Program-made: the position numbers and the translations under genes
In this document: piece after piece, positions 6,256 through 24,770 of the stretch
Position numbering within the stretch: the stretch's first letter is position 1
Layout: every line of letters begins with the position of its first letter
Notes under the pieces: model-generated
Told to the model about the DNA's origin: nothing
Seen by the model: only the letters and a program-made list of their open reading frames with translations
Database searches by the model: none
Source of the DNA: a virus
Taxonomy: Duplodnaviria; Caudoviricetes
Length of the DNA stretch: 64,000 nt
Reading direction: 5' to 3' (one strand)
IMG/VR virus record: IMGVR_UViG_3300040811_001959

Positions 6256-7117
6256 TTAAAATACCTTTAAGAATTTTAATTACTTTGATTGGATCAATCT
6301 CTACAAATTCTACTGTATCAGATTGAAAATTATGATGCAACAAATGCCCTATTTGGGTAGGATTTGTTATTGTACTCCATAAAACTACACCAGGCGTAGG
6401 CGATATTTTGTTGCAAGCCATATGCTGTATACAACTATCTATAGATATAAATGAGCTGCAATTATTTACTAACTCTTGAATTGTTAATAAAGGTTCATCT
6501 TCAACCGTGCAAATTCTATCCAACGTGTCAATTCTTGGATCATACTTATCGTTTTTTACCTTTACACACATAAAAAAATAATCTGGAAAAGCATCATGGA
6601 TAGCTTTAATAAAATCATATTCTTTTCTATAATTTCTAAATACCATTATATCATGTCTATCCTCTCCGTTATTAGTATTTCCGCCTTTTAATTGAAATAT
6701 GATATACTTTTTTCCTATTTTTTTTGTAACCTGTTCATAAAATGTACGGGCTGTTTCATCTGTGTAAATTTCTACAAAATCTTGATAGTTTTCAATATCT
6801 AAATTCAAACCTTTTCTCCAACTAGTCAATATATGCTCATCTTCAAATAAGTAATCAGATCTGTAAGGTTCAAAATAAGTTATACTGGTAAAATAATTCT
6901 TCATTACCGTAACATTTGGCAAGGCCATACTTAGAGAAGATGCAACAAGTGGATGATTTATAAATAAATTAGGGTATGGTGAACTAATAGAAATTTTTGA
7001 TTCATGACGATTATAGAGATCTTTTATTAAATTGCTAAACAAAACACACTTGCCTACACCATTCTGTATCATGTACAAAGGTGTTTTATTTTCAGGAAAT
7101 ATTTGTGGAATAATCAT
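6206..7117 (-). CDS. Glycosyltransferase, GT9 (heptosyltransferase)-like
   Basis: NGVGKCVLFS...PYPNLFINHP...FISIDSCIQHMA...VVLW...GHLLH, a GT9-like pattern. Confidence 0.75.
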   Translation of the reverse strand: MIIPQIFPENKTPLYMIQNGVGKCVLFSNLIKDLYNRHESKISISSPYPNLFINHPLVASSLSMALPNVTVMKNYFTSITYFEPYRSDYLFEDEHILTSWRKGLNLDIENYQDFVEIYTDETARTFYEQVTKKIGKKYIIFQLKGGNTNNGEDRHDIMVFRNYRKEYDFIKAIHDAFPDYFFMCVKVKNDKYDPRIDTLDRICTVEDEPLLTIQELVNNCSSFISIDSCIQHMACNKISPTPGVVLWSTITNPTQIGHLLHHNFQSDTVEFVEIDPIKVIKILKGILNGKNQSMVPKTQYQQK

Positions 7118-7119
7118 AA

Positions 7120-7761
7120 CTATCTAAATTTTGGACCTCCGTACCAGCAAATAAAAGCTCTGCGTGTACCAGCTGTTATTTTATTCACTTTATGGATTGC
7201 AAATGTTGGAAATAAAAGCACACTACCTTGAAGCTTTACATTGTTCGGTTGTGCAATATTTAAATGTTCTTCTACAATGGTCTCACCTCCATCATAATCT
7301 TCTTCGTTTGATAACTGAATTATAAAAGTTAATTTTCTATCATGATGATGATTATCCCAATGATTTGTATCATCGTGTGTATCAAACCAATCATCAATAT
7401 CATATTGCATCAATTGTTTAGATAAGCAGCCATAACTTATATCTAGATGAAAACAATCTCTGTTAGCCATTAAAGCAATTTTATCTAATTTTGCATCTAA
7501 CCAATCAATCTCATTTTCCAAGAACATGTGTTTCCTAGACCTTTTTTCTCTAAAATATTTATACCACGGACTTTCTTCGTTATTTACTATTTCTATGAAA
7601 ACATCTTCATTTTTCCAATATGACCAAATTTTATCACATTCTTCTTTTGTAAAAATATTTTCTTTAAAATAGTAAGGTTGTCTACTACCGTTTGAATCAG
7701 AAAAAACTCTTTGCTTTGTTTCTTTTGAAGCTTTTGCTATGTCATTAGGTTCATATATCAT
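7120..7761 (-). CDS. 2OG-Fe(II) oxygenase (P4H/PKHD-like), intact active site
   Basis: THDD...RKLTFIIQLS...YDGGE...FPTFAIHKV..IT.GTR. Confidence 0.9.
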   Translation of the reverse strand: MIYEPNDIAKASKETKQRVFSDSNGSRQPYYFKENIFTKEECDKIWSYWKNEDVFIEIVNNEESPWYKYFREKRSRKHMFLENEIDWLDAKLDKIALMANRDCFHLDISYGCLSKQLMQYDIDDWFDTHDDTNHWDNHHHDRKLTFIIQLSNEEDYDGGETIVEEHLNIAQPNNVKLQGSVLLFPTFAIHKVNKITAGTRRAFICWYGGPKFR

Positions 7762-8384
7762 CTAAATTTTGGTCCAATAATATGAGAGATTAATATATAC
7801 TTCGTTCCTTTTGTAATAGGAGCAATCTTGTAAAAATAATAAGCAGGTAATATACATAAAGATCCCTGTGAAAGAAATTTTTGCGGAATAGGAACTGTGC
7901 TATGAAATTCAACAATTTCACCTCCTACAATATCTTCGTCATTTAAAAATAATAAAAGACTCAACTTATTATCGTAAGGTTTTTCATTGTTCCACCACTC
8001 GCAATCATGGTGCCAATTTATAAACTGGTCTTTTTCAAATTTACACAGATATAGGTTTTCTACATTCATAAGATCTAGCATAAAATTTTTATTGGCATCT
8101 GCGCCAACTTCGTTGAAAATTTTTTCTAAAAATTTATAATCTTCTGGGAAAAAATTTTTCTTTAGTGAGATAGAAAAGAAATTACCAAAATCGTTATTGA
8201 TATGATTATATCCGCCTTTTTCAAATTTGGTTATTATCTCTTTACAAGCGTTTTCACTAAAAAGTTTTTCATAAATTACAAATGGAGATTTTTTGTAATT
8301 TATAGGAGAATAATCAGTTACCTTGCCAAATATAGGAGGGTAAGGCGATCCTGGTTCTCTTGCATCTTGAATATTTACACCCAT
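7758..8384 (-). CDS. 2OG-Fe(II) oxygenase-like protein, distal His absent
   Basis: WHHD...KLSLLLFLND...GGE...LPAYYFYKIAPITKGTK, with Tyr where the distal His is expected. Confidence 0.8.
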   Translation of the reverse strand: MGVNIQDAREPGSPYPPIFGKVTDYSPINYKKSPFVIYEKLFSENACKEIITKFEKGGYNHINNDFGNFFSISLKKNFFPEDYKFLEKIFNEVGADANKNFMLDLMNVENLYLCKFEKDQFINWHHDCEWWNNEKPYDNKLSLLLFLNDEDIVGGEIVEFHSTVPIPQKFLSQGSLCILPAYYFYKIAPITKGTKYILISHIIGPKFR

Positions 8385-9718
8385 GACGGTCTCCGTATAT
8401 CTCCTTGAATATCAACAACTTTTTTTCCTGTTAATAGTTTTATAGCTCCAAACATAATTCCTAAATTATAGGCATACTCATTCCAGCAAGTTTGAGCAAA
8501 CTCTTTTCCAGTAAGAAACATACAGGACCCTTTGCATAATTGTAAAACAGGACAATGTGTACATTCGTTTCTCCAGGACCAATGCCTGCTAGATTTAATT
8601 CTAACGGCATCAAAATTGTCAAGATGACCAGCAAGGTGTTTGTTTTCCAAACCTACATTTTGGCATGTGAGTACATTACCTTTTAAATCTAGAGCTAGTT
8701 CATCGTCTTGATCCATTCCACATTTTTGCCCAAGAAACTCTGCATCTTTTTTATATAATAAAGAACCATACCATTCGTTAATTTTTTCTACAATACCTAC
8801 AACTTGTAATAATGGTTGCTTACCTTCTACTATCCCGTTGTATATTTTTTCTCTAAAATCATAAACATACTTTTGATCAAATTTTCCAGTTTTATCATTT
8901 AGTGCAGTTTTTAAATCGTAGGCTTCGACAACTCCTTCACAATTAATATTAACATCGGTTCCAAATTTATCTCTAAACCATTTTACAGTTTGATCGTAAT
9001 CATCATTTTCTTTTGTCCAAACAATTGAAAAAGCAAACCCAAGTTCTTGTTTTTTATCAGCTTCTATTAATTGTTTTACAAATTCAAACTTTTTAGGATT
9101 ATCTAATGGATCAGGCCCTCTAAGATGATATCCGGGTCCGTCATGTGACATTGCTAAATTAAATCTATATTTTTTAAAAAAATCAATTTTTTCTTGTGTT
9201 AACAAACTTCCATTTGTAACCATCGTAAATTCAATATCTTCATCACATTTTTCTTTTAAAAAAGGTACTAATTTTTTTATTTTTTTCCAATAAAGTAGCG
9301 GCTCGCCGCCCCAAAGTTCCACCATTGTACAAGATGATAAATCAATACTATTTTCTAAATTATGCATAAAAACATCTGTATCATTTTCATCTGTACGAGA
9401 TGCAGCAGGAACAAAAGATGCTTGACTACAATATTCACATTTATAATTACATTTTAATCCCAACTGAATTTTAATTCTACTTGGGTTTTTTAATTTTTTT
9501 CCAGGATTAAAAAAAGGATGAATAGGATTTACATTAGTTTGATGAGGATAATCTTTAGGACTATATACATACATTTCATTGATTTTTTCAATACCGATTG
9601 GATTTTTTTCATATAAATTTTGACCGTCGGCATTAGTAAGTAAACTTTTATATGGATAATAAAAAAATTCTTCCCCGTCGTCGCAAATTAGTGTATAAAC
9701 AAGATTTTTATTTTTCAT
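8375..9718 (-). CDS. Radical SAM/SPASM domain protein
   Basis: CNYKCEYC, WGGEP, VTNG, SHDG; SPASM CG...GNVLTC...CTHCPVLQLCKGSC...C. Confidence 0.93.
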   Translation of the reverse strand: MKNKNLVYTLICDDGEEFFYYPYKSLLTNADGQNLYEKNPIGIEKINEMYVYSPKDYPHQTNVNPIHPFFNPGKKLKNPSRIKIQLGLKCNYKCEYCSQASFVPAASRTDENDTDVFMHNLENSIDLSSCTMVELWGGEPLLYWKKIKKLVPFLKEKCDEDIEFTMVTNGSLLTQEKIDFFKKYRFNLAMSHDGPGYHLRGPDPLDNPKKFEFVKQLIEADKKQELGFAFSIVWTKENDDYDQTVKWFRDKFGTDVNINCEGVVEAYDLKTALNDKTGKFDQKYVYDFREKIYNGIVEGKQPLLQVVGIVEKINEWYGSLLYKKDAEFLGQKCGMDQDDELALDLKGNVLTCQNVGLENKHLAGHLDNFDAVRIKSSRHWSWRNECTHCPVLQLCKGSCMFLTGKEFAQTCWNEYAYNLGIMFGAIKLLTGKKVVDIQGDIRRPSWV

Positions 9719-9873
9719 TCTATAATCCTATAAACGTAAGAAATTCGAGAATCAACTGAATATGCATGAGTGCATATAATTTTCTTTGTACTAGTTAATG
9801 TTGACTCGTACTCTCTATTGTTTTTTTGCGTAAAATTAATTTTACATTTTTTATATTTTAGAAGCAAGCTCAT
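9715..9873 (-). CDS. Possible small hypothetical protein
   Basis: Fills the gap in the operon; the track's start (9951) overlaps the upstream gene by about 100 nt, so the later ATG was chosen. Confidence 0.3.
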   Translation of the reverse strand: MSLLLKYKKCKINFTQKNNREYESTLTSTKKIICTHAYSVDSRISYVYRIIE

Positions 9874-11500
9874 ATTTTTGTTGATATAATTGAATTGTAA
9901 GACTATTTGATAACAATTGTTCTTTAAACTGCTGGAATAAATCTTTGGCAATTAGATAATTTTCTTCACTACAAAAATCTAATACATCATTGTTTTGTAA
10001 TAATTCTTTTCTTTTTTCAATATCATAAAGTTTATTATGAAAAACAGGAACCAAAAAATCATATTCATTAATAAAATTAAAAAGTTTATTTTCGGTATGG
10101 TAATAGACATGAAAAAAACGCCAGTAATTTATTTTAAAAGACATTGTTTCGTCTATTCCTGTTGTAATTTCAGTAGAATTTGGATTATATATATTTTTAC
10201 AATCTTTCCAAAAATTAGCAGAATTATTAGTCCAAGTATATAATAAAGACAAATCTGAAATTTCTTTAAAAAAATTAGAGTAAGTTTCATTAAATTCTAA
10301 AGTTTTCAACATCAATGTTTCTTCATCTATACTAAAACAATCATCTTCCGTGTCGTTATCGCTTTCAATTAAAATATTAATTAGCGATTCTATCTGTTTT
10401 ACAATTAGATTTAAGGGATCAATAAAAATAGGTTCAATAATCGATGAAGCATTACCTAACGCTATGCAATTTTTGTTAAGAATTTTATCTATTGATCCTA
10501 TGTTTAAATCTATAATTTGATATTTCTCAATTTTCAAATTAAGATGATTTTCTAACTCTGACAGCGCATCTTCGTCACTGATATAATTTTGTGCATAAAC
10601 ATAAGAATACCTTGTGCAGTTTTGTAATGGAATTTGATATACATAACCTGCTGATAAAGGATAAAAATCTTTCCAAATTTTTTCTAATGCAATATCACTT
10701 TCATATGAAATTACTTTATTCACTTTATGCGTAGGAAATAACCAAAAATTATAAAAAGAAAAATTTGTAACAACATCTCTATGAATTCCTGTGCAATCTA
10801 TAACAAAATCACAGTCATAAACATCATTTGTTCCTTTAACTTGGATAATAGTTTCGTCTTCTTCTTGAATTAGTTGTTGGTAATAATCGTCTATTACCTC
10901 AACATCTTGCTGTAAAGCTAATCTTTTAATATATGGCAATAGTTTTTCACTTGTGTAGGTGATTGCAATTGATCTGTCTTTATTGTCAAATAAATTCATT
11001 AAACTAGCAATATCTAAATCTGGAATTTTATCTTCGGTAAAAAATGATGTAATTTCTGAAAAATTAATTTTTTTTTCGTCATTTAATAGTCTATTAAGAT
11101 AGGATCGTTTCCATGTCTTATTAAACTTCTCGACTTCATCATTTGGATCTATTTCATCTTGATCAGCGTTGTCTTCAGTTTTTTCTGGCCAATGAATTTC
11201 ATCAATTTTCATAAAATTCATAGAATTACTATGTACAAAAATTTCGTCTGTAGTATTCCAATTATTATACCTTGACCCAAAGTTAATAACTCCTTGGGTT
11301 TCTTGGAATAAGTCTTTTATGTCTAAATATTCAATTAAGTTTTTTGTAAGGTATAAAGTTCCTTCTTGTATATCATTACCTTCAAGAATAGGCTGATTTA
11401 TAATTTTAATTTCAAGAAATGGTAATTGCGTTTTTAATATATAAGCGGTTAACCAACCTTCAAGACCTGATCCAACAATAATGATCTTTTTTAATCTCAT
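9851..11500 (-). CDS. Flavin-dependent oxidoreductase, tryptophan-halogenase fold
   Basis: IVGSGLEG (GxGxxG), FVIDCTG, GNASSIIEP. Halogenase-specific Lys and WxWxIP appear replaced. Confidence 0.8.
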   Translation of the reverse strand: MRLKKIIIVGSGLEGWLTAYILKTQLPFLEIKIINQPILEGNDIQEGTLYLTKNLIEYLDIKDLFQETQGVINFGSRYNNWNTTDEIFVHSNSMNFMKIDEIHWPEKTEDNADQDEIDPNDEVEKFNKTWKRSYLNRLLNDEKKINFSEITSFFTEDKIPDLDIASLMNLFDNKDRSIAITYTSEKLLPYIKRLALQQDVEVIDDYYQQLIQEEDETIIQVKGTNDVYDCDFVIDCTGIHRDVVTNFSFYNFWLFPTHKVNKVISYESDIALEKIWKDFYPLSAGYVYQIPLQNCTRYSYVYAQNYISDEDALSELENHLNLKIEKYQIIDLNIGSIDKILNKNCIALGNASSIIEPIFIDPLNLIVKQIESLINILIESDNDTEDDCFSIDEETLMLKTLEFNETYSNFFKEISDLSLLYTWTNNSANFWKDCKNIYNPNSTEITTGIDETMSFKINYWRFFHVYYHTENKLFNFINEYDFLVPVFHNKLYDIEKRKELLQNNDVLDFCSEENYLIAKDLFQQFKEQLLSNSLTIQLYQQKYELASKI

Positions 11501-12198
11501 GCTTCCTCAATTTTTTGTATTATATCGTTGATATCCTTCAATGAATGTGATATCGGTACGTTTGATAATTTATTATGTAGATTCAAATTATTTTTCTTTA
11601 TATCAGTATTATCATTTTTTAAAAGTCTAGTCATATTAATTTTATTTCTTACCTTATTATAAAACATTACAAGGAAAATAGGATAGTATGTCATATTTTT
11701 ACAAAAAAAAGCTTCTTGCTGGAAAAATAAAAAATCACCAGGATTAACAACACATTTTGAAATATTTTTATTATCACTGGTATAATATATAGATTCTATA
11801 TTTAAAGGAACTAGACAAAAATTATCAGAATATTTTAAAAGTTTTGTTTTTCTAAACCTTTCCGGAGTAACTATATTTTTAATACCATTGTCAATATAAT
11901 CTAGACTTGTTGATAAATCAAGAAATTGGATATCTTCTAAATATATGTCAGTATTAATTTGCAAAATATTATTGTAAATGGTTCTAATGATATCAATTAT
12001 AGGATCAATACAAAAAATAATTGAATAACTATTTGTTTCTGTAATTTTTCTGACAATACCATTAGCAAGTAGTCGCACGTCATCTAATTCCTGTTGAATT
12101 CTATGTTTATTAAAATCATGAACTGACCTTATTATATCAAAAAAATATTTAAGACGTGTTACATCTTTTTTAGATAACAATTGTTTTTCATATAGCAT
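11497..12198 (-). CDS. Hypothetical protein (possible degenerate oxygenase fold)
   Basis: 233 aa, 4-nt overlap in the operon; VNPGDFLFF resembles a cupin/DSBH strand. Confidence 0.55.
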   Translation of the reverse strand: MLYEKQLLSKKDVTRLKYFFDIIRSVHDFNKHRIQQELDDVRLLANGIVRKITETNSYSIIFCIDPIIDIIRTIYNNILQINTDIYLEDIQFLDLSTSLDYIDNGIKNIVTPERFRKTKLLKYSDNFCLVPLNIESIYYTSDNKNISKCVVNPGDFLFFQQEAFFCKNMTYYPIFLVMFYNKVRNKINMTRLLKNDNTDIKKNNLNLHNKLSNVPISHSLKDINDIIQKIEEA

Positions 12199-13855
12199 TA
12201 TTACTTGCCCTTAATCGTTTGAATGGAACATGTTCTATATAAGTTTCAAAGTATTCTCCATTTTTTGATGTAATTTGTCCTACATTACCATAGTTCGGAG
12301 TCTCTAAAATTAATAAATTTAAAAATTCATCAAAAGTAAAATAGCCATTAAAGTAAAAATTTTCTTTTACATTAATTTCAAGATATAATGCTAACCTATC
12401 AAACACGTTGCTGCTTGAAAAATCAAAATCAAATGCAGTAATGTTACCAAGTTGAGCTGCTAAAATTATATAATCAATTACACTATTTGGGTCTTTGTCG
12501 TAGGAATTGCCAAAAGTAATTTCATTATTAAAATCTGTACTAAAACTAGGTACTTTATCATTAAAATTAGTTTTTAATGTATCTGGTGTATTATTAAAAA
12601 TTCCATAACCTTGCAAATTGTTATCCTGCAATAAATAAAAACTAAATTTCTTAAGATTTTTGTTAAAATTTTCCCATTTATGTTGAAGTGAATCAATGTA
12701 TTGATATAAATTTGCTGGATCGATTATGGAAGAATTAATCGTTGATACAATTGTATCTATATAAATATTAGCTGCCACTAACTCTTCGTTAAATATAGGA
12801 TTCAAACCTAATTTTTCTAAATTAAATTCTATATAATTAGAATGATTTAGATCATTAATTAAAAAATTATTTTGAAGTGTATTAATATTATTGACATTAT
12901 TGCTAAATGATATTTTTTTTGCATAATCTTGATATTTTAAAATTTTAACAAATTTATTATCTAAAAGCTGGTTATTATAGATTGCTGGTTCAAGAAAATC
13001 AATTTGTTCATCTTCATAACCAGAAAAAATTATTGTAGGATTTGTAGTAGTAAGTTCTTTATCACTTTCTATAAAATTATTAAAAAATAGATTATTTATA
13101 CCTGTATTAATCACCAAATCTACATTAAAAGATTGACTACTAGTCGTAATTTGTGTTATATTTTTTTTATTTTTTCCATCTAATACTGGTAGGATTTCAG
13201 TTGATCCATCTACTATATTATCAGTTATAATGTCTAACCCTAATTCTGATATTTTGTTATCTAGAAGAAGAGCAAGATTATCTAAATCATAACATCCTGG
13301 CATTCTAAACCATAAAGGACCTGCAGATCCTTCGGTTAGAAATTTGCCGGTGAGATGATATAAATTATCATTATTTTTATATAAATCATATGGAAAGATT
13401 GTAAGCACATCAAGGATATTTTTATTTTTTTGTAGTAGATATTCTATAAAAGCTTGATATTTTCTTTCTGTTGAATCAAATTTTAAAAAATCATATTTTG
13501 TACAATAATAGTTTAATAAACTAAATTGTAACTGTGTCATCCTAGCTGGTAATATTATCTCATTTTCTATTATACCTTCAAAAGAAATTCCATGCCCGAC
13601 TGTGCTCTTTGTTTGTGTAAAAATCTCTGCAACGCTTATATTACAATGTTTAAAAAACAACGAAGGAAAGGAATATTGTTCAGCTACAGGTAGATATTGA
13701 TTTGAAATTATTTGTGTTCTGAAACTTTCATTATTAGTAAATAATATTGGATTACTTTGCGGATTATTTATCTTCAAGGATAATGCAATCACCTTTGCAG
13801 CAAATGTATTTCCTAATACTGCAATATTTTTTATTGCCATTTTGATCCTATACAA
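12188..13855 (-). CDS. Degenerate tryptophan-halogenase-fold protein
   Basis: IKNIAVLGNTFAA (broken GxGxxG), TKSTVGHGISF, VDLVINTG; size and layout similar to 9851..11500. Confidence 0.55.
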   Translation of the reverse strand: MYRIKMAIKNIAVLGNTFAAKVIALSLKINNPQSNPILFTNNESFRTQIISNQYLPVAEQYSFPSLFFKHCNISVAEIFTQTKSTVGHGISFEGIIENEIILPARMTQLQFSLLNYYCTKYDFLKFDSTERKYQAFIEYLLQKNKNILDVLTIFPYDLYKNNDNLYHLTGKFLTEGSAGPLWFRMPGCYDLDNLALLLDNKISELGLDIITDNIVDGSTEILPVLDGKNKKNITQITTSSQSFNVDLVINTGINNLFFNNFIESDKELTTTNPTIIFSGYEDEQIDFLEPAIYNNQLLDNKFVKILKYQDYAKKISFSNNVNNINTLQNNFLINDLNHSNYIEFNLEKLGLNPIFNEELVAANIYIDTIVSTINSSIIDPANLYQYIDSLQHKWENFNKNLKKFSFYLLQDNNLQGYGIFNNTPDTLKTNFNDKVPSFSTDFNNEITFGNSYDKDPNSVIDYIILAAQLGNITAFDFDFSSSNVFDRLALYLEINVKENFYFNGYFTFDEFLNLLILETPNYGNVGQITSKNGEYFETYIEHVPFKRLRASNNAI

Positions 13856-14379
13856 AATGCAAACAAGTATTTTAATTGTGGTACAGAAACAGTATCAATT
13901 ATATATTTTTGAAAGCTGTTAAATACTACAATGGCACCAGTTTTTTGATAAAAAATCTTATCAATCTCACTTTGACTTCCATTAGGTGCGATTAGTTTAA
14001 TTTTTCCACCAGCAATATCTGGATCAAAAGGAGGATTTAAATTTATGATAGCTACAAGTTTTCTATCATAATAATTCTGCACCCAATGGTTTAATTCCAT
14101 TCGTTCTGAAAATGATCCGTCTTTTGAATATGATTCTAATCTAATTGCATCGATGCTATTAATTGAATAACCAAAATTATTATTATTTGCTTTTTGGAAA
14201 TAATAATAAATTGCATCTTCTATATCAGAAATGTAACCACCACCGTACCATTTGACATCTACATTTTTACCTTTACCACTAGATAGATTACTTTTAACTT
14301 GTAAATTTTCAATAATATTTAGAAATTCTGGTACTACATTTTCAACAGCACCAGGAAAGGTTATATGATCGTAAAGCAT
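13831..14379 (-). CDS. 2OG-Fe(II) oxygenase-fold protein lacking HxD/H
   Basis: YDRKLVAIINL...GGKI...GAIVVFNSF...IGSKW frame; metal ligands not present. Confidence 0.7.
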   Translation of the reverse strand: MLYDHITFPGAVENVVPEFLNIIENLQVKSNLSSGKGKNVDVKWYGGGYISDIEDAIYYYFQKANNNNFGYSINSIDAIRLESYSKDGSFSERMELNHWVQNYYDRKLVAIINLNPPFDPDIAGGKIKLIAPNGSQSEIDKIFYQKTGAIVVFNSFQKYIIDTVSVPQLKYLFAFCIGSKWQ

Positions 14380-14384
14380 AATAT

Positions 14385-14972
14385 TTATTTCAATTTAGGA
14401 CCTACAATATCGAATGTAAGAACTTGCATAGCTCCTTGTAATAATGGATTTATTTTTATAGGTACAAAAGATGGATAAATTAACAAATTACCTTGCTCAT
14501 TATAATATTTAGGTAGTGATATGCCATATAAAGGGTCTACTAAGAATTGCCCACCTTCATATTTTTGTTTATCACTTAGAAAAACATAACCAGTTAGTTT
14601 TTGGTCACAGGACTCATTTGAAAAAAAATCTAATCTTGAATGGTATCCGTACTCACAACCTTGCTGGAAGGTTATTAATCTTGGATCGTTTTCAAATCCC
14701 CAAATTTCATATCCATAATTTCTAGTATTGCAATCAAAAATATATTTTAATATTTTTTCTTCTAAATGCAGTTGATTTTCAATTGTGTAAGACTCAAAGT
14801 TTTGTTTAGGTGTTCTCGGATTTGTAACTGGATTGGGTTCTATGTTGACAATATCATTGTCGATTTGCAATTCGCAAATTTCAGCGCATTCGTCGCTATA
14901 GAATATTTTAGGATATATAGTAAAACATTCTTTTTTAAGAAGAGAAGAATAGTCATATTCCATTATATTCAT
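14385..14972 (-). CDS. 2OG-Fe(II) oxygenase-fold protein, degenerate triad
   Basis: GYHSR...KLTGYVFLS..YEGGQF...GNLLIYPSF...GPKLK; Asp and distal His missing. Confidence 0.75.
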   Translation of the reverse strand: MNIMEYDYSSLLKKECFTIYPKIFYSDECAEICELQIDNDIVNIEPNPVTNPRTPKQNFESYTIENQLHLEEKILKYIFDCNTRNYGYEIWGFENDPRLITFQQGCEYGYHSRLDFFSNESCDQKLTGYVFLSDKQKYEGGQFLVDPLYGISLPKYYNEQGNLLIYPSFVPIKINPLLQGAMQVLTFDIVGPKLK

Positions 14973-14987
14973 TATAACTCTTTATGT

Positions 14988-15695
14988 TTATAGGTTTTCT
15001 ATTTTTTCTAATAAAATCGGAATTTGTTCAATGTAAATTAAACCCTTTAATTTATTTCCGTCTTTTTCTAGAATATTTATTAGGTCTGGTAAAATATTTT
15101 CTGCCTCTTGAGCAAATTGATCTAGCAAAACTTTTTCATCGTCAGTAATATCATTGTCATTTTCTATCAAACTTTCAATATCAAGCCCTTTATCTATATA
15201 ATCTATTATAATCTCTTGTAAAGATTTTAATTTTTCTACGCTAAGTTGATCTATAATAAATCCATCGGAGTCTTTTCCTAAATTAAATGAACATTTACAT
15301 TTACCACACCAACATTTACAAGCACATTTGCATTTACATTGGCACTTGCATGCACATTTGCATTTACATTGGCACTTGCATGCACAAAGGCACTTGCACT
15401 TACACTTGCACTTGCATTTGCATTTGCACTGGCACTTGCATTTGCAATTGCAGTTGGTTGTATATTCTATCCTTAGTGTACCTTCTGATCCTGCTACATT
15501 ATTCCGTATTTGATAAATTTTGTTAATAGCAGCGCCGGTAAATGGACCATTGCTAGGAGTTGGAACTAGAGACACTCCATTTAATAACCAACTTGGACTC
15601 ACAAAAGAAGCAGGAATAGTTGTAGGATCTACATTACTAATATCAATTTTATCTGCCGGATCACCTACAACGGTATTTCCAATTTTTAATGCCAT
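14988..15695 (-). CDS. Poly-(Cys-X) repeat protein, putative virion/tail-tip protein or RiPP-like substrate
   Basis: About 81-aa N-terminal domain, a 54-aa tract with 27 Cys (25 consecutive CX, mostly CK), then an acidic C-terminal domain; TAAATA promoter at 15714-15719. Confidence 0.8.
   Translation of the reverse strand: MALKIGNTVVGDPADKIDISNVDPTTIPASFVSPSWLLNGVSLVPTPSNGPFTGAAINKIYQIRNNVAGSEGTLRIEYTTNCNCKCKCQCKCKCKCKCKCKCLCACKCQCKCKCACKCQCKCKCACKCWCGKCKCSFNLGKDSDGFIIDQLSVEKLKSLQEIIIDYIDKGLDIESLIENDNDITDDEKVLLDQFAQEAENILPDLINILEKDGNKLKGLIYIEQIPILLEKIENL
15291..15452 (-). repeat. Low-complexity TGY-NNN (Cys-X) coding repeat with a 30-nt tandem duplication
   Basis: tgtgcatgcaagtgccaatgtaaatgcaaa occurs twice (CACKCQCKCK). 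Synonymous TGT/TGC and AAA/AAG variation points to selection on the protein. Confidence 0.9.
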
Positions 15696-15713
15696 TATAA
15701 CCTCTGTTTGAAT

Positions 15714-15719
15714 TATTTA
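15714..15719 (-). promoter_or_regulatory. T4-type late promoter core (TAAATA) heading the Cys-repeat/modification operon
   Basis: The same hexamer lies about 5-30 nt upstream of at least 12 structural or late genes in this window. Confidence 0.7.
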
Positions 15720-15729
15720 TCTTTATGAT

Positions 15730-16326
15730 TTATGAGACCGTGATATAACTATTCACTGGATAGCTACATTGACAAGAATCCTCGACAGTAGTATCGTCGT
15801 AATAAGCTCCACTTCCACGATTATATGAACATACCATAGCACAATAGTAATTTGCAGTACCTATACAACAGCAAACTAAACAATTATTAACTATTGCAAA
15901 ACAAATTTGATTTGTGTATCCGCCTAATGTCCATCTGACGCCGGCTGTAACATCAAAGCATGTAAGGGTTCCTTGTGTAGCAGGTATATTACTACTGGGT
16001 TGCACATATGATCCGTAAGACGTAGTATTTGCACACATAAAAAAATCGCTGCCTTTACCAACATAAACATTAGTCACTGTATCAGCCCATGAGTCAAAAT
16101 CTCCACAAAAAATATCTAACAAAGTATATGTTCCTTGTGGATTTGAAAAAAAAGTTAAATCAGTTTCGGGATCTAATCCTAACACCCGTTGGCATGCCGC
16201 AATGCTTGGATTACAAACTATCAATTGTCCTGTTGTATGTTGCTTTCCTGGTGCTTGTGCGTTCCTTTCCGCTTGGGTGAGTCCTGCTTCTAAAATTATT
16301 ATCTTATCTCTAATTCTAAATGCCAA
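15730..16326 (-). CDS. Cys-rich putative virion protein
   Basis: 198 aa, 14 Cys including CLVCCC and CQC; MAFRI N-terminus like its neighbours. Confidence 0.7.
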   Translation of the reverse strand: MAFRIRDKIIILEAGLTQAERNAQAPGKQHTTGQLIVCNPSIAACQRVLGLDPETDLTFFSNPQGTYTLLDIFCGDFDSWADTVTNVYVGKGSDFFMCANTTSYGSYVQPSSNIPATQGTLTCFDVTAGVRWTLGGYTNQICFAIVNNCLVCCCIGTANYYCAMVCSYNRGSGAYYDDTTVEDSCQCSYPVNSYITVS

Positions 16327-16327
16327 T

Positions 16328-16771
16328 TTAATCTCCTATATAAACATACTTCACACTAGAATCTCCGTTGTAGTCACAAAATTTAATTAAATTTGCACAG
16401 CCTACCATATATGAATCATATACACACCTACTATAGTAATAAGGATTTTGGACAGTATTATAATATGGTGGTCCTGTGTGTTTAGGAGTCCGGGTATCAC
16501 AATACCTATGGCTATTTGCAACAGAAGAATGCGACCCTAATAAGAACGCTCTCCTGGATAGTCCGCATTTATCAATCGCAGTTCCTGTTGTGCTCCTAGT
16601 CCCTGAGGCTAAATAGGCAATAACTTTTGGACAGCGTAACCATACTTGATTATCGGTAAATGATGTGTTAGAATTCATTCCTTGCCCATACGGAACAATG
16701 GTATCTTTAAAATCTATTGATGTTGTTAAACCTACTGCATCTACAAGGACGCCGTTAATATAAAAAGCCAT
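16328..16771 (-). CDS. Putative virion protein
   Basis: 147 aa, MAFYING N-terminus, 6 Cys, Tyr-rich; AGGAGA RBS. Confidence 0.65.
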   Translation of the reverse strand: MAFYINGVLVDAVGLTTSIDFKDTIVPYGQGMNSNTSFTDNQVWLRCPKVIAYLASGTRSTTGTAIDKCGLSRRAFLLGSHSSVANSHRYCDTRTPKHTGPPYYNTVQNPYYYSRCVYDSYMVGCANLIKFCDYNGDSSVKYVYIGD

Positions 16772-17964
16772 TATGGTATTACCTTAAGTTTCAAACTACC
16801 AACATTTGAAAATGATTTAAAGCCAATTTTGATTTCTACATCGTCACCTACTTCTAAATCAAGCGCTCTATATAAAAATCTACCCCTACCGTTTTTTACA
16901 TTACATTTACGTTTACTCAAATAGCCTGCATTGGCCGAAACGTAAAAGTCAATATCTTTTTGAATTATATAGTGATCTGAAATTGTACCTTCTTTATCGC
17001 TTAAATTAGTAGGTGTTAAAATTTTAAGATCAGTCGTATTTAGATCCTCCAAGCAAAGTTTACTATCTATATGTTCATATGTAATTTTATCAGCATCTTC
17101 CGTAAGCAGAACTTCTTCATTATCATATAGACTTACATTGACTAAAATGACATCATCTTTAGATATTTCAAGAGGAGCGTGTAATTGAATTTTAGGTAAA
17201 GGAAGCTCTGCATAACTAGTAAGTAAAGGAAAAACATAAGCAAAGTTTGCCCCGCCGATTTCATTTGTACCTAATTTAAAATCAAAATGAAATTCTCCGT
17301 GACATCTAACGTAATAACTACATTCTGTAAAATCATCGTCTTTATCTAGTATGAAAATAGAAAAAAGTCTTTTCCTAAATTCGCCGCTAGTCCAGAAAGA
17401 TGCGCCCTCTGGTGTTGTCCTTATTAATTTTGGAGCTGTTACATAAGAACTATTAAGTTCATGCCTAACAAAAGGCGACTTTGTTATTACAGAATCAAAT
17501 AGGATATTTTTAGGATAAAACCAATTCATACCGTCAAAATTAAAATCAAACGCCCATAAGGCGCAATCGGACCATTCAACAAAAGTATTTTTATCAAATC
17601 CAACATTTTTATCAAACCCTCTATCATAGGTTGTTGTTCTTGTCAGTATTGAAATGTTACCATCTTGATCAAAAGCTCTGCGAATTTGTGCTCCGCCAAA
17701 ATACCTAAAATATTTTGACTGCACTGATGGTTCATAGAAAATTGAACCAGAAACCACCGACTCTAAGAAATTTGCATCCATATCAATATTATGATCTTGT
17801 AAGAACGAAACTCCATCTTTATTATCTATGAATAGTATGTTTTCTGGCAATTCATCATAGATTTCTTCATGAAAGGCTTTAATTGTAATTGTATTGGTAT
17901 CTACTTCTATTTTAAGAAATAAATTATCTAATAAATCATTTGTGGCCCTAAAATATTGTCGCAT
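16771..17964 (-). CDS. Hypothetical protein with C-terminal Ig-like beta domain; candidate chaperone for the Cys-rich tail proteins
   Basis: 397 aa, translationally coupled to the tail-fibre gene; ends AGYLSKRKCNVKNGRGRF...LEVGDDVEIKIGFK. Confidence 0.65.
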   Translation of the reverse strand: MRQYFRATNDLLDNLFLKIEVDTNTITIKAFHEEIYDELPENILFIDNKDGVSFLQDHNIDMDANFLESVVSGSIFYEPSVQSKYFRYFGGAQIRRAFDQDGNISILTRTTTYDRGFDKNVGFDKNTFVEWSDCALWAFDFNFDGMNWFYPKNILFDSVITKSPFVRHELNSSYVTAPKLIRTTPEGASFWTSGEFRKRLFSIFILDKDDDFTECSYYVRCHGEFHFDFKLGTNEIGGANFAYVFPLLTSYAELPLPKIQLHAPLEISKDDVILVNVSLYDNEEVLLTEDADKITYEHIDSKLCLEDLNTTDLKILTPTNLSDKEGTISDHYIIQKDIDFYVSANAGYLSKRKCNVKNGRGRFLYRALDLEVGDDVEIKIGFKSFSNVGSLKLKVIP

Positions 17965-20900
17965 TATTTTTCCAATCTTTTTTCTAATTCACTAACTTTT
18001 TTAGATAATTCTTTAACAGCCTCTAATAATACAACTGTAAATTTTTGATAATCAACCTTTAAAAATCCTGTATCGCCTCTTTCAACAACTAATTCTGGAT
18101 AATATTCCTGTATCTGTTGCGCCTTAACACCAATCTCTTCTTTATCATTTTTATATAAAAACTTTTCTTTTGCCAGACCGTTCCATTTAAATTTAATGGT
18201 ATCAATGTTTGAAATTGTATCTAAAACGTTTTCAAGACCACCAGTAATGGTTTTAAGTCTTACATCTGATGTATATTCTGTGGTTATATCTCCAGTTGCA
18301 AGTATATTACCTGTTTCGCATTCTAAAAATATATTATCAACTGCTGTAGTGCTTCTTCCTACAATAGTTTTTGCAGTATCAGTACCAAAGTAGAAGCCAT
18401 ATCCATCTTCTGACTCTCTGGTTAACTGTTGCGCTTGTAATTTTGTAGTTGATACATAGGTGTCAAGATTAATGGTAACATCACCAGTTACACTACTATT
18501 AGTATTGATATTATCTCCACCAATAAATTGTATAGTTTGTCCACCTGCAACTGCTCTTACAGTAGAATCGTCTCCTGTAATTTTCCAAACACCACTACCA
18601 TCACCTACAGCAGTGTTTGAAAATTCTACTGTTTTATTGATAGCATTGAAAACTATACCTATACCAGCTCCGGCAATCCATGTAAGAGTATCATAACCTT
18701 CTGCGATTAAATCGTCTTGTGCTTCGGCTTGCCATGTACGAAAAGTGCTATGGGTAAGTGAAATTTTAACTTCTTTGTTTCCTAGATCAACAAAATCAAA
18801 ACCGCTATCTTCATCAAATTGCAATCTAACAAAATCATTTGCTGACTTTATAGGAGTATTAGTATTGTCAATTACATCAACATGGGTTCCTGAAAAAATA
18901 GTGAGCGATCCATCGCTTGCACTTTCGGTATAGACATTGTCATTACCAATAATTTTTAAGGTATCACCTGATCCAATTTCTCTTGAGATATTATCGGTAC
19001 CGGTGTAATTAAAACTGAATGTAACACCGGCTATTGCATTATCAATATATAATTGCGTAATTGAATCTGAAGATAATAATAGAGATTCAGCTGATAGAGA
19101 TTTACCAATAATGCCGTATTCTGTTTGCGTAAGAGTCAAGCTTCCATCTGCATCTAAATAATAATCTTCATTGGTAACTAATCCTGCTTGTTGATCTGCA
19201 ATTTTACCGTTAGTATACACCGGACCTATTTGCCCTGCTCCTGTGCTAGTTTTTACTATACCTATAAATTTACCAGCATTCGATTCAATTGTTGTATAGG
19301 CGGTGTCATATAAAGTACTTTGGCCTGGCCCTGAAGTGTTGCCTCTGTAGGAAATTATAATTTTATTTTTTACAGTGTCGGTAGTAATATCATTGTACCA
19401 ACTAGGATTAAAATAAATATCTTCTGGATCTAAGAAAAGGAATGTTCCTGCTGGATTAATTACGCCTGTTTGTATTTTTCCTCTACCATTGGTAGTGTCT
19501 CGGAACGCAATACAAACTCTTTTAGAATTAGATTCATATGCTGCTGATAAGTAAAGTACGTTATACTCAGCAAATGTGTACGGTAATTTCAAATCAAAAC
19601 CTGTACCAACTATGGTACCAGTTCTATATGTTCCATAATTGCTGTTATCTATGTCACGATATACGACTACAAGCCTATCATTTTCAGGAGTAGTAATGAT
19701 ATCATTATAATCACCATTATTGGCAACCACTGTTGCATCACCGATATTAACTGTAATTGTAGTAACTGTGTTAAATGATGCTGAAACCAACATTACATTA
19801 CCATTAGATCTATGATAAGCTATAATGCTTTGATTCGTGTTAGGATCATATGCCGCTCTAATATTATTGATAATGTTAGTGTCAAATATTTGTTCTGTGC
19901 CTAAACTTAGAGCACCATTTATTATTGTGCCTACAACAATTTTTCCTTGACTATTATCATTAGTATCTTCGTAGTGCAACAAAACTGATTCATCGGTTGT
20001 GTTATAAACCGCATATACCGAACCTGCTATAGCCGAATTTGGAAGATTTATAGGAGAGCGTAGATTAATTTCTGTTCCTGCAATTTCTGCTAATCTAACC
20101 TCATTGTTATACACGATTACTACAAAATCTAATTCAACATGATAGGCAACAGCGACATCAAAGACTGAGCTTGAAACCTGTTTAGGAGTTCCATAATCAA
20201 TTGTATTGTCAGCTTTTATTTGTCCTACCACAACTTTAGTATCAGACTCTGTTATATCCTTGTATACAACTATAACTTTATCTTTTCCATTAAACACAGA
20301 ATCAACATCATTAATATCATTTGCAGTAAACGTATGATCAGTATGGGTTATACTCAAGTTTTCAGTGTAAACTGCAGATACTTTTTCTATTTTACCATCG
20401 GCTCTCAGTGCAACGGTCGTACCACCACGGATGAACTCATGAAATTCAAATTGAGCATCGGCATCTTCTATACCATAACCGGATAATGTAGTTGGAGTAT
20501 TGTAAATTTTTTCCCAGGATGTTTCTGGAAATATTTGCAAATGATCTGAGTTGAGCCCTTTTCCTATTAAACCAAAGTCAGTTTTTGTTGTTGTGAAACT
20601 AGCATCTGAATTTAAATAATAGATTTGATCAAAGGTAAGTGATGTCTGATGCCTATCTACTGCTCCTCTTAGGTTAATTTTTCCAGACTGACCTGCAGGT
20701 ATGTCATCATCTGCAACGCCTATAAAACGGTTAGCATTACCATATAAATTAGACTCTGCAGAAAATAAAGTAATTTCTCCTTTATTATTGTCAACTTTGT
20801 CTCCATAAGCAATGACTGTTTTATTAGTTGTGGTATCAAAAACTGATGCCACAGCAGTGAGAGGATAACCTTGCCCGTCTGCGAAGATAAAATCAGGTTC

Positions 20901-23168
20901 AAATTCTATTGTGTTGGTAGCAGGTCTAACAATGCCTACTTTTGTGATGCCAATTTTTACAGGATCAGTTGTATTTCTTTCATATGAAATGATTACTTTT
21001 TGATTTTGATTATCAAATGATGCTGAAATTTTTGAAGTAAATCCAGTATCAAACACCACAGGAGTACCAAAATTAATATAACTACCTACAAGATATCCTG
21101 TTACCGCAGTACCTCTGCCGCTGTTACCTCCATCTGAATAACATATTACACAATGATCTGTAAAGCTATCCCATACCACTGATATATCGCTGATAGGATT
21201 ACTACTCGAAAAAATGTAATGAGGCCCTACCTGGAAACTTGTTCCTAATGCGTTCGTCCAAATTAAATTTGCATACCCTTGTCCTGTAGCTCCGTCTTGA
21301 TAAGCAAGGAGTGTGAAATCATTTGATACTGTGCCGTCACCGGGTACATTTGTAATAGAATCTATCCAGTTCATAGTTTCTGCAGGATTTACACTAAATC
21401 CTGCAAGATAAACTAAATTAATAGTTGTACCAGTAGTAGTTAATAATCTTACCTGACCTCTATTAGACTCACCCTTAAATGCTAATACTGTTACATTTGC
21501 TAGAGCATCATAACTAATTGAGTGATATAATCCTTGGAAACCATTTGAAGTTTCAACAGCAGTTCCAATAGATAGGGTATTGTTAGATGTAATTATATCT
21601 GCTGCAACAGCAAAGCCTTTGTTAGAATCGTTTACATCAGTATAGGCGAATATCAATTGATTATTAGGAATAAAATTAATAGCAGTATATGCTATTTCAT
21701 CATTAAGGATTTTATAAGATGGTCCGAAATTAATATTGTTACCTGTAATTTCTCCAATACGCACAAAACCATATCCGTCTTGGTTTTTCCATATCACAGC
21801 AATTTTATTATTATCGGAGCTGTAAGCAACATCTATAATCGATGCTTCTTCGCCAATGTCTGTAAAAACTATAGGTAATGTATTAGTAGCTGCATTTAAC
21901 GTGTCGCCACCGACAAATTCAGTTACTGGTTCTACGTTCCCATTTGAATTAACAACTACTACATCACCTTTGTTGACCGTAACTTCAGAAGTGAAGAACT
22001 TTTGGTTATCGCCTAGAGTTTCTTGAAAACTATATAAACCATTACCATCTGCTGTCAAGACTAATCCAGGTAAGACGCTAGAATCTGTATCAACATCTTC
22101 TAAAGCAGATAGTAACCCTGCTTGAAATGACTTAAAATAAAATGTTCCATTGCCTGCAGAGGTTAAGACATCGTTTGCATTAGATGTTGCTGTAACATCT
22201 TGTAGGGTTGCCAGAGTAAGAGCCGAGCTTGCACCCCAATAAAAAGAGTTGCTCGATGCAGCATATAAAACTTGTCCAGCACTTGGATTATTTGTAATCT
22301 GTAATAAATCAGTCACATTACCACTAAATGCATCAGTGATGCCATAACCAACTAATGTAGTTGGTATGTTTAATAAACTGCTAAACTCTTTATCAAATGT
22401 TGCATTGGTTATTGCATTATCAACATAAGTTTTAGTTGTAAAGTTTGCATTATTGGTAAGTTGTGTAATATTGTCTGCTGGTTGTAATGCGCTATCTGCA
22501 AGACTTCCTTGGGTAGAAGTAGCAGCATCTGTGATACCATATCCTGCAAGTGTTGTTGGTTTATTTAAAAGATTATTAAATTGTCCATTGAATGCAGTTG
22601 ATGCTAACTGATAAGGCGTTAGATCAGGTCCTTGTATCCGTATGTTACCATCTGCATCACTATAGGTTGCAATATTTCTTTCGCCTGAAATCTTAATACT
22701 GTCGGTAAGCGGTATAGAAATTATATTGCTATCATCTGCAGCAATTTTTAAATAGATGTCTTCTAATTTAACACTTACAGTAATGTCATTTGCTGAGTCT
22801 CTAATGAAAGAGATACCATATCCTTCATTTAGCTCAACATCAGTTGGCAATGATTGATCAACAATAGCAGCATAACTGGCAACTACATCAACACTATCGG
22901 GTAATGAACTCTTAACAGATAATCTGGTATTATATCCTAAAATTAATTTTTCGCCAGTTGACACAACTCGCAAACTTGTCCGACTAGGTAACACGACATC
23001 TTTTATATAATATCCGTTGTCAATAACCACGTCAACATTTACCATTAAGTTTGTGACATTAGTTAAACTTAATCCAAGTAATGTATATCTTGCAAATGCT
23101 GTTGATTCTAAGATTTGCGTATCATCTAAACCAATATTTTTTACAATTTTATTACCTATTACTGCCAT
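17964..23168 (-). CDS. Long tail fibre/spike protein with C-terminal intramolecular chaperone (peptidase S74-like)
   Basis: 1734 aa; SDVRLK...IGVKAQQIQEYYPELV...VDYQKF..LLEAVKEL; three PTTLxGYGIxDA repeats; two internally duplicated beta-rich domains. Confidence 0.9.
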   Translation of the reverse strand: MAVIGNKIVKNIGLDDTQILESTAFARYTLLGLSLTNVTNLMVNVDVVIDNGYYIKDVVLPSRTSLRVVSTGEKLILGYNTRLSVKSSLPDSVDVVASYAAIVDQSLPTDVELNEGYGISFIRDSANDITVSVKLEDIYLKIAADDSNIISIPLTDSIKISGERNIATYSDADGNIRIQGPDLTPYQLASTAFNGQFNNLLNKPTTLAGYGITDAATSTQGSLADSALQPADNITQLTNNANFTTKTYVDNAITNATFDKEFSSLLNIPTTLVGYGITDAFSGNVTDLLQITNNPSAGQVLYAASSNSFYWGASSALTLATLQDVTATSNANDVLTSAGNGTFYFKSFQAGLLSALEDVDTDSSVLPGLVLTADGNGLYSFQETLGDNQKFFTSEVTVNKGDVVVVNSNGNVEPVTEFVGGDTLNAATNTLPIVFTDIGEEASIIDVAYSSDNNKIAVIWKNQDGYGFVRIGEITGNNINFGPSYKILNDEIAYTAINFIPNNQLIFAYTDVNDSNKGFAVAADIITSNNTLSIGTAVETSNGFQGLYHSISYDALANVTVLAFKGESNRGQVRLLTTTGTTINLVYLAGFSVNPAETMNWIDSITNVPGDGTVSNDFTLLAYQDGATGQGYANLIWTNALGTSFQVGPHYIFSSSNPISDISVVWDSFTDHCVICYSDGGNSGRGTAVTGYLVGSYINFGTPVVFDTGFTSKISASFDNQNQKVIISYERNTTDPVKIGITKVGIVRPATNTIEFEPDFIFADGQGYPLTAVASVFDTTTNKTVIAYGDKVDNNKGEITLFSAESNLYGNANRFIGVADDDIPAGQSGKINLRGAVDRHQTSLTFDQIYYLNSDASFTTTKTDFGLIGKGLNSDHLQIFPETSWEKIYNTPTTLSGYGIEDADAQFEFHEFIRGGTTVALRADGKIEKVSAVYTENLSITHTDHTFTANDINDVDSVFNGKDKVIVVYKDITESDTKVVVGQIKADNTIDYGTPKQVSSSVFDVAVAYHVELDFVVIVYNNEVRLAEIAGTEINLRSPINLPNSAIAGSVYAVYNTTDESVLLHYEDTNDNSQGKIVVGTIINGALSLGTEQIFDTNIINNIRAAYDPNTNQSIIAYHRSNGNVMLVSASFNTVTTITVNIGDATVVANNGDYNDIITTPENDRLVVVYRDIDNSNYGTYRTGTIVGTGFDLKLPYTFAEYNVLYLSAAYESNSKRVCIAFRDTTNGRGKIQTGVINPAGTFLFLDPEDIYFNPSWYNDITTDTVKNKIIISYRGNTSGPGQSTLYDTAYTTIESNAGKFIGIVKTSTGAGQIGPVYTNGKIADQQAGLVTNEDYYLDADGSLTLTQTEYGIIGKSLSAESLLLSSDSITQLYIDNAIAGVTFSFNYTGTDNISREIGSGDTLKIIGNDNVYTESASDGSLTIFSGTHVDVIDNTNTPIKSANDFVRLQFDEDSGFDFVDLGNKEVKISLTHSTFRTWQAEAQDDLIAEGYDTLTWIAGAGIGIVFNAINKTVEFSNTAVGDGSGVWKITGDDSTVRAVAGGQTIQFIGGDNINTNSSVTGDVTINLDTYVSTTKLQAQQLTRESEDGYGFYFGTDTAKTIVGRSTTAVDNIFLECETGNILATGDITTEYTSDVRLKTITGGLENVLDTISNIDTIKFKWNGLAKEKFLYKNDKEEIGVKAQQIQEYYPELVVERGDTGFLKVDYQKFTVVLLEAVKELSKKVSELEKRLEK

Positions 23169-23195
23169 TTATAATCCTAATAGTTATATTTATTG

Positions 23196-24767: not shown

Positions 24768-24770
24768 ATT

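Follow-up and report, generated by a model that had tools for sequence, protein, structure and literature searches.

Why would a tailed phage encode a protein in which Cys is repeated at every second position over 25 consecutive dipeptides? The question is raised by P0001, a protein of 235 amino acids (aa) encoded on a viral stretch of 64,000 nucleotides (nt) (IMG/VR record IMGVR_UViG_3300040811_001959; Duplodnaviria; Caudoviricetes), here called the window. An earlier reading of the sequence, the original prediction, had taken this tract for a possible trimeric metal or Fe-S needle. We found that the N-terminal domain of P0001 and the N-C-N-C start of its tract are members of a widespread phage module, which is encoded together with a radical SAM/SPASM enzyme and a partner protein, F1, in tail-fibre blocks. 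We favour the reading that the tract is part of a trimeric accessory fibre and that its Cys ladder is modified, probably cross-linked by thioethers, by this enzyme. On balance we regard this as probable, with considerable room for doubt.

The Cys-X tract and the module to which it belongs

P0001 contains 25 uninterrupted Cys-X dipeptides at aa 82–131, followed by one additional Lys and then CKC. In total, 27 Cys are found within 54 aa, exactly at 15291..15452 as originally described, with the gene on the minus strand, and there is no Cys outside the tract. The X residues are Lys (17), Ala (3), Gln (3) and one each of Asn, Leu, Trp and Gly. The tract has a net charge of +17 per chain and the C-terminal 100 aa one of −15. 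At the start of the tract P0001 reads ...RIEYTTNCNCKCKC, a beta-strand-like stretch that is followed by N-C-N-C-x-C. Such a run of 25 alternating Cys is beyond chance. Cys and Lys are each encoded by both of their codons (TGC 16, TGT 11; AAA 10, AAG 7), and an exact stretch of 35 nt recurs at an offset of 30 nt, which bears out the synonymous codon variation and the internal 30-nt duplication noticed earlier. Tandem Repeats Finder reported a period of 30 with 4–4.5 copies and 78–80% matches. Open reading frames (ORFs) over the repeat on the plus strand (HLHLH, ALAL) were rejected as repeat artefacts.

The enzyme was used alone to scan viral contigs, which gave 367 relatives, and 80 loci were kept for the tract count. 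As many as 64 of these 80 loci had a same-strand ORF with a (Cys-X)≥3-Cys tract, and a relaxed pattern found the motif in most of the remaining loci too. Nearly all 64 tracts are of the NCNC type (NCNCxCxC) and are located mostly at the protein C-terminus. Asn before the first Cys and between the first two Cys was observed in 61 of 67 distinct contexts. When the enzymes were clustered at 60% identity, a tract was present in 20 of 24 clusters. The reverse test started from the tract. The NCNCNCNC pattern had 120 DNA matches in viral contigs, 86 in-frame and 34 out-of-frame. The enzyme was located within the fetched flank of 58 of the 86 in-frame matches and of none of the 34 out-of-frame matches (Fisher p = 4e-13). 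This bidirectional coupling of NCNC tract and enzyme, over at least 20 enzyme lineages, therefore points to enzymatic modification of Cys, instead of or besides metal chelation.

The window fits the same module, with the enzyme and F1 both on the minus strand in the tail-fibre block (Table 1). When the N-domain and tract start of P0001 were compared by hhalign with 52 small NCNC-tailed phage proteins, the probability was 96% (E 3.6e-9, 80 columns), with part of the score contributed by the NCNC motif itself. P0001 and these small proteins also have the N-terminal motif MAxK(I/V)G(N/T)T in common (alignment A5).

The NCNC tract was found in four arrangements. It forms the extreme C-terminus of 90–240-aa proteins, often as three tandem paralogues; it is followed by a Hint domain (sub-threshold Pfam matches, L048 and L058); it is followed by a Peptidase_S74 (S74) domain; or it is followed by a tail of ~175 aa without a Pfam match. 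Since the tract mostly ends at a natural C-terminus or stands before a self-removing Hint or S74 domain, it would finish as a free C-terminal end. The ~175-aa tail belongs to a subfamily of ~300 aa encoded just downstream of the enzyme (L061, L063, L064, L067, L069, L071, L074, L076 and L077), in which YNCNCxCNC is followed by SKI(I/V)CxKL and then by the tail. This tail may be a third type of appendage on the C-terminal side of the tract. Another small protein, of 93 aa (L037:169-450), is encoded beside a radical SAM enzyme and F1 and reads ...HVHVHVCTCTCTCTSTCKCTCKCTSTC...

Enzyme homologues were also found in unrelated cultured phages, each within a tail-fibre module and beside fibres with the same end motif. 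In Achromobacter phage JWF, gp028 has NCNCDCNCNCSC immediately before the Hint domain. The fibre gene of Achromobacter phages JWF and 2-1 is located two genes upstream of the enzyme and reads NCNCDCNC(NC)SC before Hint, and ORF048 of Ralstonia phage RSP15 is a fibre fragment with a TNCQCGN end.

As a cross-check, S74 proteins were chosen by a single criterion, a Cys-rich segment ahead of the cleavage site. Translational coupling to radical SAM genes was seen for P0022, which has three copies of CPCNCNW and S74; P0058 adjoins radical SAM genes as well. P0101 adjoins YcaO, a nitroreductase-family protein and ScmC. The S74 control P0024, which has no Cys, had no modifying-enzyme neighbours on a 12-kb contig; a second control, P0040, is on a 1.4-kb contig that is too short to judge. 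Six radical SAM genes are found on the P0022 contig (L088:5956-10001, near 14181 and near 17297), as are methyltransferase, NodZ-like, DegT and deacetylase genes, and this fibre neighbourhood is unusually rich in enzymes. P0101 (172 aa; L093:756-1274, L094:1013-1531) has a CSSCGSCGCAACGSCRSCPPC stretch directly before the S74 cleavage motif, with transposases nearby. The P0101 locus resembles an azoline-type cluster for peptide modification, with a substrate that bears a chaperone domain of the phage-fibre kind.

The enzyme of the window has a CX3CX2C motif and a CX2CX5CX3C motif, both invariant in alignment A2. The invariant Cys residues are C90, C94 and C97; C386-x2-C389-x5-C395-x3-C399; and C333, C352 and C411. 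The nearest NCBIfam models are PapB, HxsB, CcpM, QhpD, the SCIFF maturase and anSME, all far under their cut-offs (PapB 67.8 bits against 340; SCIFF maturase 52.3 against 425). These models stand for peptide maturases, among them thioether-forming ones. Judged by its sequence, the enzyme is a distinct family within the peptide-maturase class. It resembles PapB, CteB/SCIFF of the ranthipeptide/sactipeptide type, QhpD, and the CXXX-repeat and Cys-every-fifth NCBIfam systems in its CX3CX2C and full SPASM Cys motif, in the position of its gene beside a Cys-repeat protein and in its nearest models. However, it reaches no equivalog cut-off, and its presumed precursor matches no target family. The phage tract also differs from those systems by having Cys at every second residue and the NCNC signature. 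A folded fibre protein, 90 to >1000 aa in length, is the presumed substrate, and the module includes the Ig-like partner F1; no exporter or protease was recognised among the recurrent families. A formylglycine motif of the anSME type (CxPxR) was looked for and is absent from the tracts on inspection. A further system with an Asn-Cys signature adjoining a radical SAM enzyme is the streptococcal NxxC system, in which a Cys-to-Asn beta-thioether is formed in a small secreted peptide. It serves here only as a lead, and its spacing is NxxC rather than NC/NCNC.

F1 is the third member of the module. Homologues of F1 are present at 56 of the 84 radical SAM loci, where most of them are encoded between the Cys-X gene and that of the enzyme. 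The C-terminus of F1 matches ORF047 of phage RSP15 (E 4e-8), which is next to the ORF048 fibre fragment. The AlphaFold2 model of F1 has a predicted local distance difference test score (pLDDT) of 63, and a Foldseek search of the PDB returned only generic multi-Ig (immunoglobulin)/beta-sandwich matches with a template modelling score (TM) of ~0.2.

Length variation and the C-terminal domain

In protein, viral-contig and metagenome collections, 12 family members were found, all with the same three-part architecture and synteny. They come from marine, estuary and salt-marsh metagenomes, and DNA nearly identical to the window is present in estuary, seawater and salt-marsh metagenomes. BLASTP identity to P0001 is 42% for P0003 and 33% for P0004. 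The GenBank phage collection gave no DNA or protein match to the Cys-X gene. The full-length protein is covered by a single 50%-identity cluster among 1.8 billion representatives, which indicates that the (Cys-Lys)n family is rare.

All 12 relatives keep the tract. Its length among them varies from 23 to 59 residues and from 12 to 29 Cys. Between L001 and L003, whose flanks are ~98% identical, there is a single clean in-frame indel of 78 nt within the tract. The idea that length changes by slippage is therefore upheld among relatives, where in-frame indels are repeat-mediated and keep the dipeptide register. Since the tract is kept in relatives whose flanks are merely 38–74% identical, it is under selection and not a dead microsatellite. 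Expansion to (Cys-Lys)n is confined to the marine clade. Lys occupies 72 of 102 X positions there, and in the other clades X is mostly Asn. One relative (L101:256-969) has an in-frame stop in the N-domain (...TGATI*KIY...) and is otherwise intact. A sequencing error would explain this, as would a pseudogene or recoding.

At the read level, no indel in the tract could be called, as Logan contigs break at the repeat and repeat contigs of other organisms stack on it. On the hexanucleotide repeat (window 15390..15456), short contigs stack by the hundred with 5–7 mismatches; they come from four metagenomes that are independent of one another. Their loose ends are (GCACTG)n, a sequence that would give Cys-Gln on the gene strand. 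Either related tracts are abundant in those samples or the stacking is a low-complexity artefact.

The acidic C-terminal domain had been suggested as a possible cleaved chaperone or follower. The chaperone part of this suggestion is supported. P0003 and P0004 match Pfam Peptidase_S74 (PF13884, E 2.7e-12), and for the family profile and the S74 domain found in the neighbouring fibre of 1734 aa, hhalign gave a probability of 90% (E 1.6e-6). The C-terminal part of the profile is matched by 4767 library proteins. The family profile and the S74 region of P0003 were each searched against PDB sequences and gave nothing significant. S74/ICA domains trimerise the upstream stalk and then cleave themselves off by a Ser-Lys dyad, S911/K916 in endoNF (PMC8326128). 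From its sequence, the domain of P0001 likely has a chaperone/trimerisation role, and the tract therefore lies where trimeric fibre stalks lie.

The cleavage part is less secure. SD(x)(K/R)LK, preceded by ...CW, is intact in six relatives (P0003, P0004, L003, L009, L101 and L102). P0001 reads SFNLGK at these positions, with S135 and K140 at the unchanged five-residue spacing. Self-cleavage of P0001 is uncertain because the dyad, which is present there, is lost in its nearest relatives. Compared with other S74/ICA fibres (endoNF, the T5 L-shaped fibre pb1 and GA-1 gp12), the Cys-X family likewise has a probable chaperone domain directly after the stalk and, in those six relatives, the SDxxLK Ser-Lys motif, and the neighbouring 1734-aa fibre has a bona fide S74. 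In contrast, the stalk of the Cys-X protein is a bare Cys-X repeat and not a triple beta-helix sequence, and P0001 is just 235 aa.

Explanations for the tract

In the reading that we favour, P0001 would be a small accessory tail-fibre subunit and the tract its stalk or distal end. The N-domain of ~80 aa would end in a beta-strand and N-C-N-C, and would be followed by a Cys-X ladder expanded by in-frame repeat duplication and by an S74-type chaperone that nucleates the homotrimer. In relatives with an intact SDxxLK the chaperone would remove itself and leave the Cys ladder as a free C-terminal end. The dyad is decaying in the subclade of the window, and there the C-terminal domain may therefore remain attached. 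The enzyme would modify the tract Cys while the protein is still in the cytoplasm, either ahead of assembly or in the course of it. If it acts as its closest characterised relatives do, thioether links would arise between the sulfur of a Cys and a carbon atom in a neighbouring residue. The product would be a covalently stapled rod that neither redox conditions nor proteases affect. Where X is Lys, this rod would be strongly cationic (+17 per chain) and of tunable length, and it may act in adsorption. We hold a wider proposal somewhat less firmly, as one that may well be true: a dedicated radical SAM/SPASM enzyme that acts on NCNC...C would staple the C-termini of fibre subunits in many tailed phages (this enzyme family alone is represented on at least 367 viral contigs), and the marine clade would have a length-tunable, polycationic (Cys-Lys)n needle that is assembled by S74. 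Stapling of fibre ends could coexist with metal binding.

Several observations weigh against this account. We infer Cys modification from gene linkage. Kinship among many of the loci makes the counts look more independent than they are; at the level of lineages, 20 of 24 still hold. The conserved Asn is limited to the first two X residues, and the (Cys-Lys)n expansion may serve metal binding, disulfides or charged spacing. With enzyme scores so far under the curated cut-offs, the reaction may differ from thioether formation, and the true substrate could be F1 or another protein. P0001 itself has no Pfam S74 match even at E 10, and its closest relatives read SINLGT, FNLGT and DLGD at the dyad positions. 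The AlphaFold2 fold of the N-domain and tract start (40 sequences), a low-confidence monomer with a pLDDT of 45, was unusable, and the homotrimer prediction for whole P0001 with the family alignment had a score of 0.01 and a pLDDT of ~40, which speaks neither for nor against a trimer.

According to the original prediction, the inward Cys of a trimer could chelate a column of Zn, Fe or Fe-S. On that model there is no covalent modification and the enzyme acts elsewhere. The alternate-residue periodicity in a fibre protein with a trimerising S74 domain speaks for this model, and in the L037 protein HVHVHV continues in phase into CTCTCTCT, which puts Cys on the known metal-binding His face. The comparison was with T4 gp37, in which seven iron ions are held in HxH motifs; HxH motifs occur in marine phage fibres as well (PMC11705849). 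The likeness lies in an alternate-residue motif in a trimeric fibre. However, P0001 has Cys in place of His and contains no His at all, neither family nor PDB searches gave a sequence match, and there is no homology to gp37. HxH needles require no dedicated maturase, yet NCNC tracts are nearly always linked to an enzyme, a link that has no counterpart in gp37. Stacked layers of six-thiolate metal coordination would also be unusual. We consider chelation by itself unlikely; a metal or Fe-S needle and enzymatic modification are not mutually exclusive. Disulfides are a somewhat poorer candidate. The Cys would be reduced in the cell, and inter-chain disulfides formed after lysis in oxic seawater would lock the trimer, with only an indirect link to the enzyme. 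The phage does come from oxic estuary and seawater samples, and a dense same-face Cys array adjoins the trimerisation domain. However, three Cys per layer cannot all pair, 27 per chain is an odd number, and the conserved NCNC signature and the bidirectional coupling to the enzyme would be left unexplained.

Two other models change what the tract is for. P0001 could be the precursor of a ribosomally synthesised and post-translationally modified peptide (RiPP), with the N-domain as leader, S74 as follower protease and the tract modified and excised as a free bioactive Cys-rich peptide. A radical SAM/SPASM enzyme beside a Cys-rich repeat recalls the SCIFF and CXXX systems, and P0101 joins a Cys-rich stretch and S74 with a YcaO cluster. 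Three points make this model highly improbable: the same tract ends true fibres of up to 1082 aa (L059) and of 480–624 aa (JWF, L083), always in tail-fibre blocks; the gene families that recur in the cassette include no recognised protease or exporter gene; and S74 cleavage would release the chaperone, not the tract. The model with the least credit is that of a neutral hexanucleotide microsatellite tolerated in a linker, without specific function. It agrees with the (TGY-AAR)n DNA, with the period-6 and period-30 structure, with the length polymorphism and with the stacking of short contigs with similar repeats in the same metagenomes. It is nevertheless disfavoured, as Cys is preserved at every second position through synonymous codon changes and in relatives with flanks just 38–49% identical, no relative has lost the tract, and its TNCNC start does not vary and recurs in non-repetitive relatives. 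Homology to metallothioneins was also considered. These proteins have a high Cys content with C-X-C and CKCK motifs, and to this extent they resemble the tract. However, the phage tract is strictly two-residue periodic and is embedded between the fibre and chaperone domains of a three-domain protein in a phage structural operon, and P0001 had no match to any Pfam or NCBIfam family, so this candidate was rejected.

Genes around the tract and their meaning for phage fibres

The window is phage DNA and encodes a DNA polymerase, a DnaB-type helicase and virion proteins, the last of which are ~45% identical to their counterparts in cyanophage S-RIM12 and Puniceispirillum phage HMO-2011. The Cys-X gene sits within a tail-fibre module, in agreement with the fibre setting that had been assumed for it. 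This co-directional block comprises the 1734-aa fibre, F1, two small Cys proteins, the Cys-X gene, 2-oxoglutarate (2OG)-oxygenase-like and halogenase-like genes, and the radical SAM/SPASM enzyme (Table 1).

Table 1. Features of the window in and around the tail-fibre block
Feature	Coordinates	Strand	Basis
Gene of Cys-X protein P0001, 235 aa	14988..15695	-	ORF and translation; 12 homologues with identical three-part architecture
N-terminal domain, aa 1-81	15453..15695	-	MAxK(I/V)G(N/T)T start; beta-strand-like end before TNCNC
Cys-X tract, aa 82-135, 27 Cys and 17 Lys, N-C-N-C start	15291..15452	-	
Acidic C-terminal domain, aa 136-235, probable diverged Peptidase_S74-type chaperone	14991..15290	-	Ser135 and Lys140 at dyad positions
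Radical SAM/SPASM enzyme, 447 aa, candidate tract maturase	8375..9718	-	Pfam Radical_SAM and Fer4_12
F1, 397 aa, beta-sandwich domains, Ig-like end	16771..17964	-	Homologues at radical SAM loci
Small Cys-containing proteins, 198 aa (CLVCCC stretch) and 147 aa	15730..16326, 16328..16771	-	ORFs
Long tail fibre, 1734 aa, heads module	17964..23168	-	Pfam PF13884, E 1.2e-9 at aa 1634-1694
Four 2OG-Fe(II)-oxygenase-like paralogues	14385..14972, 13831..14379, 7758..8384, 7120..7761	-	phrog_61, phrog_2928 and PF13640, for the accessory genes taken together
Clade-specific accessory genes around the enzyme, including two Trp-halogenase-like proteins and a 233-aa protein	7120..14972	-	

The synteny with the long fibre is kept in L002, L003, L099, L102 and L103. 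The 198-aa and 147-aa proteins between F1 and the Cys-X gene both start with MAF..I and are kept in L002, L099 and L102. Family searches gave no match for either of them, and they may be further fibre subunits or substrates. Members of the 2OG-oxygenase-like family (f32) turned up within the marine (Cys-Lys)n clade and at one other locus, L052. That these paralogues act on Lys of the tract is speculation, and any connection of the accessory genes to the tract is a matter of inference only. Arrays of dioxygenases and halogenases in cyanophages were described by Iyer et al. (2010), who do not mention Cys-repeat fibres (PMC2938197). Another radical SAM gene is located further down the block, at 4314..5471 on the minus strand; its product belongs to the twitch-domain subfamily (NF033640), with a score of 203.7 bits that exceeds the cut-off. 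Compared with the IMG/VR relative L002 over 5464..26030, protein identity is 98% for the fibre genes, 73% for the Cys-X gene and 39–48% for the 233-aa and 555-aa genes, and is back up to 78% for the radical SAM enzyme. This part of the window is a hypervariable island with conserved genes on either side.

A search of the literature for Cys-X repeats, or for radical SAM, SPASM or thioether chemistry of tail fibres, found no publication. To our knowledge, phage receptor-binding fibres are thought to mature solely by folding, chaperones and self-cleavage. If the favoured reading is true, enzymatic cross-linking would join these routes, and the receptor-binding parts of virions would be subject to a post-translational chemistry that has so far not been described. 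It would also explain why radical SAM genes recur in phage structural operons, and NCNC at a fibre C-terminus would become a sequence signature by which such fibres can be located. The cassette is present in cultured phages (Achromobacter JWF and 2-1, Ralstonia RSP15), which makes the idea directly testable. The (Cys-Lys)n tract itself is an extreme natural design, a rod of +17 per chain with Cys at every second residue. Its length shifts by repeat indels between near-identical phages, which bears on the evolution of host range, and the rod bears on the trace metals that marine viruses carry.

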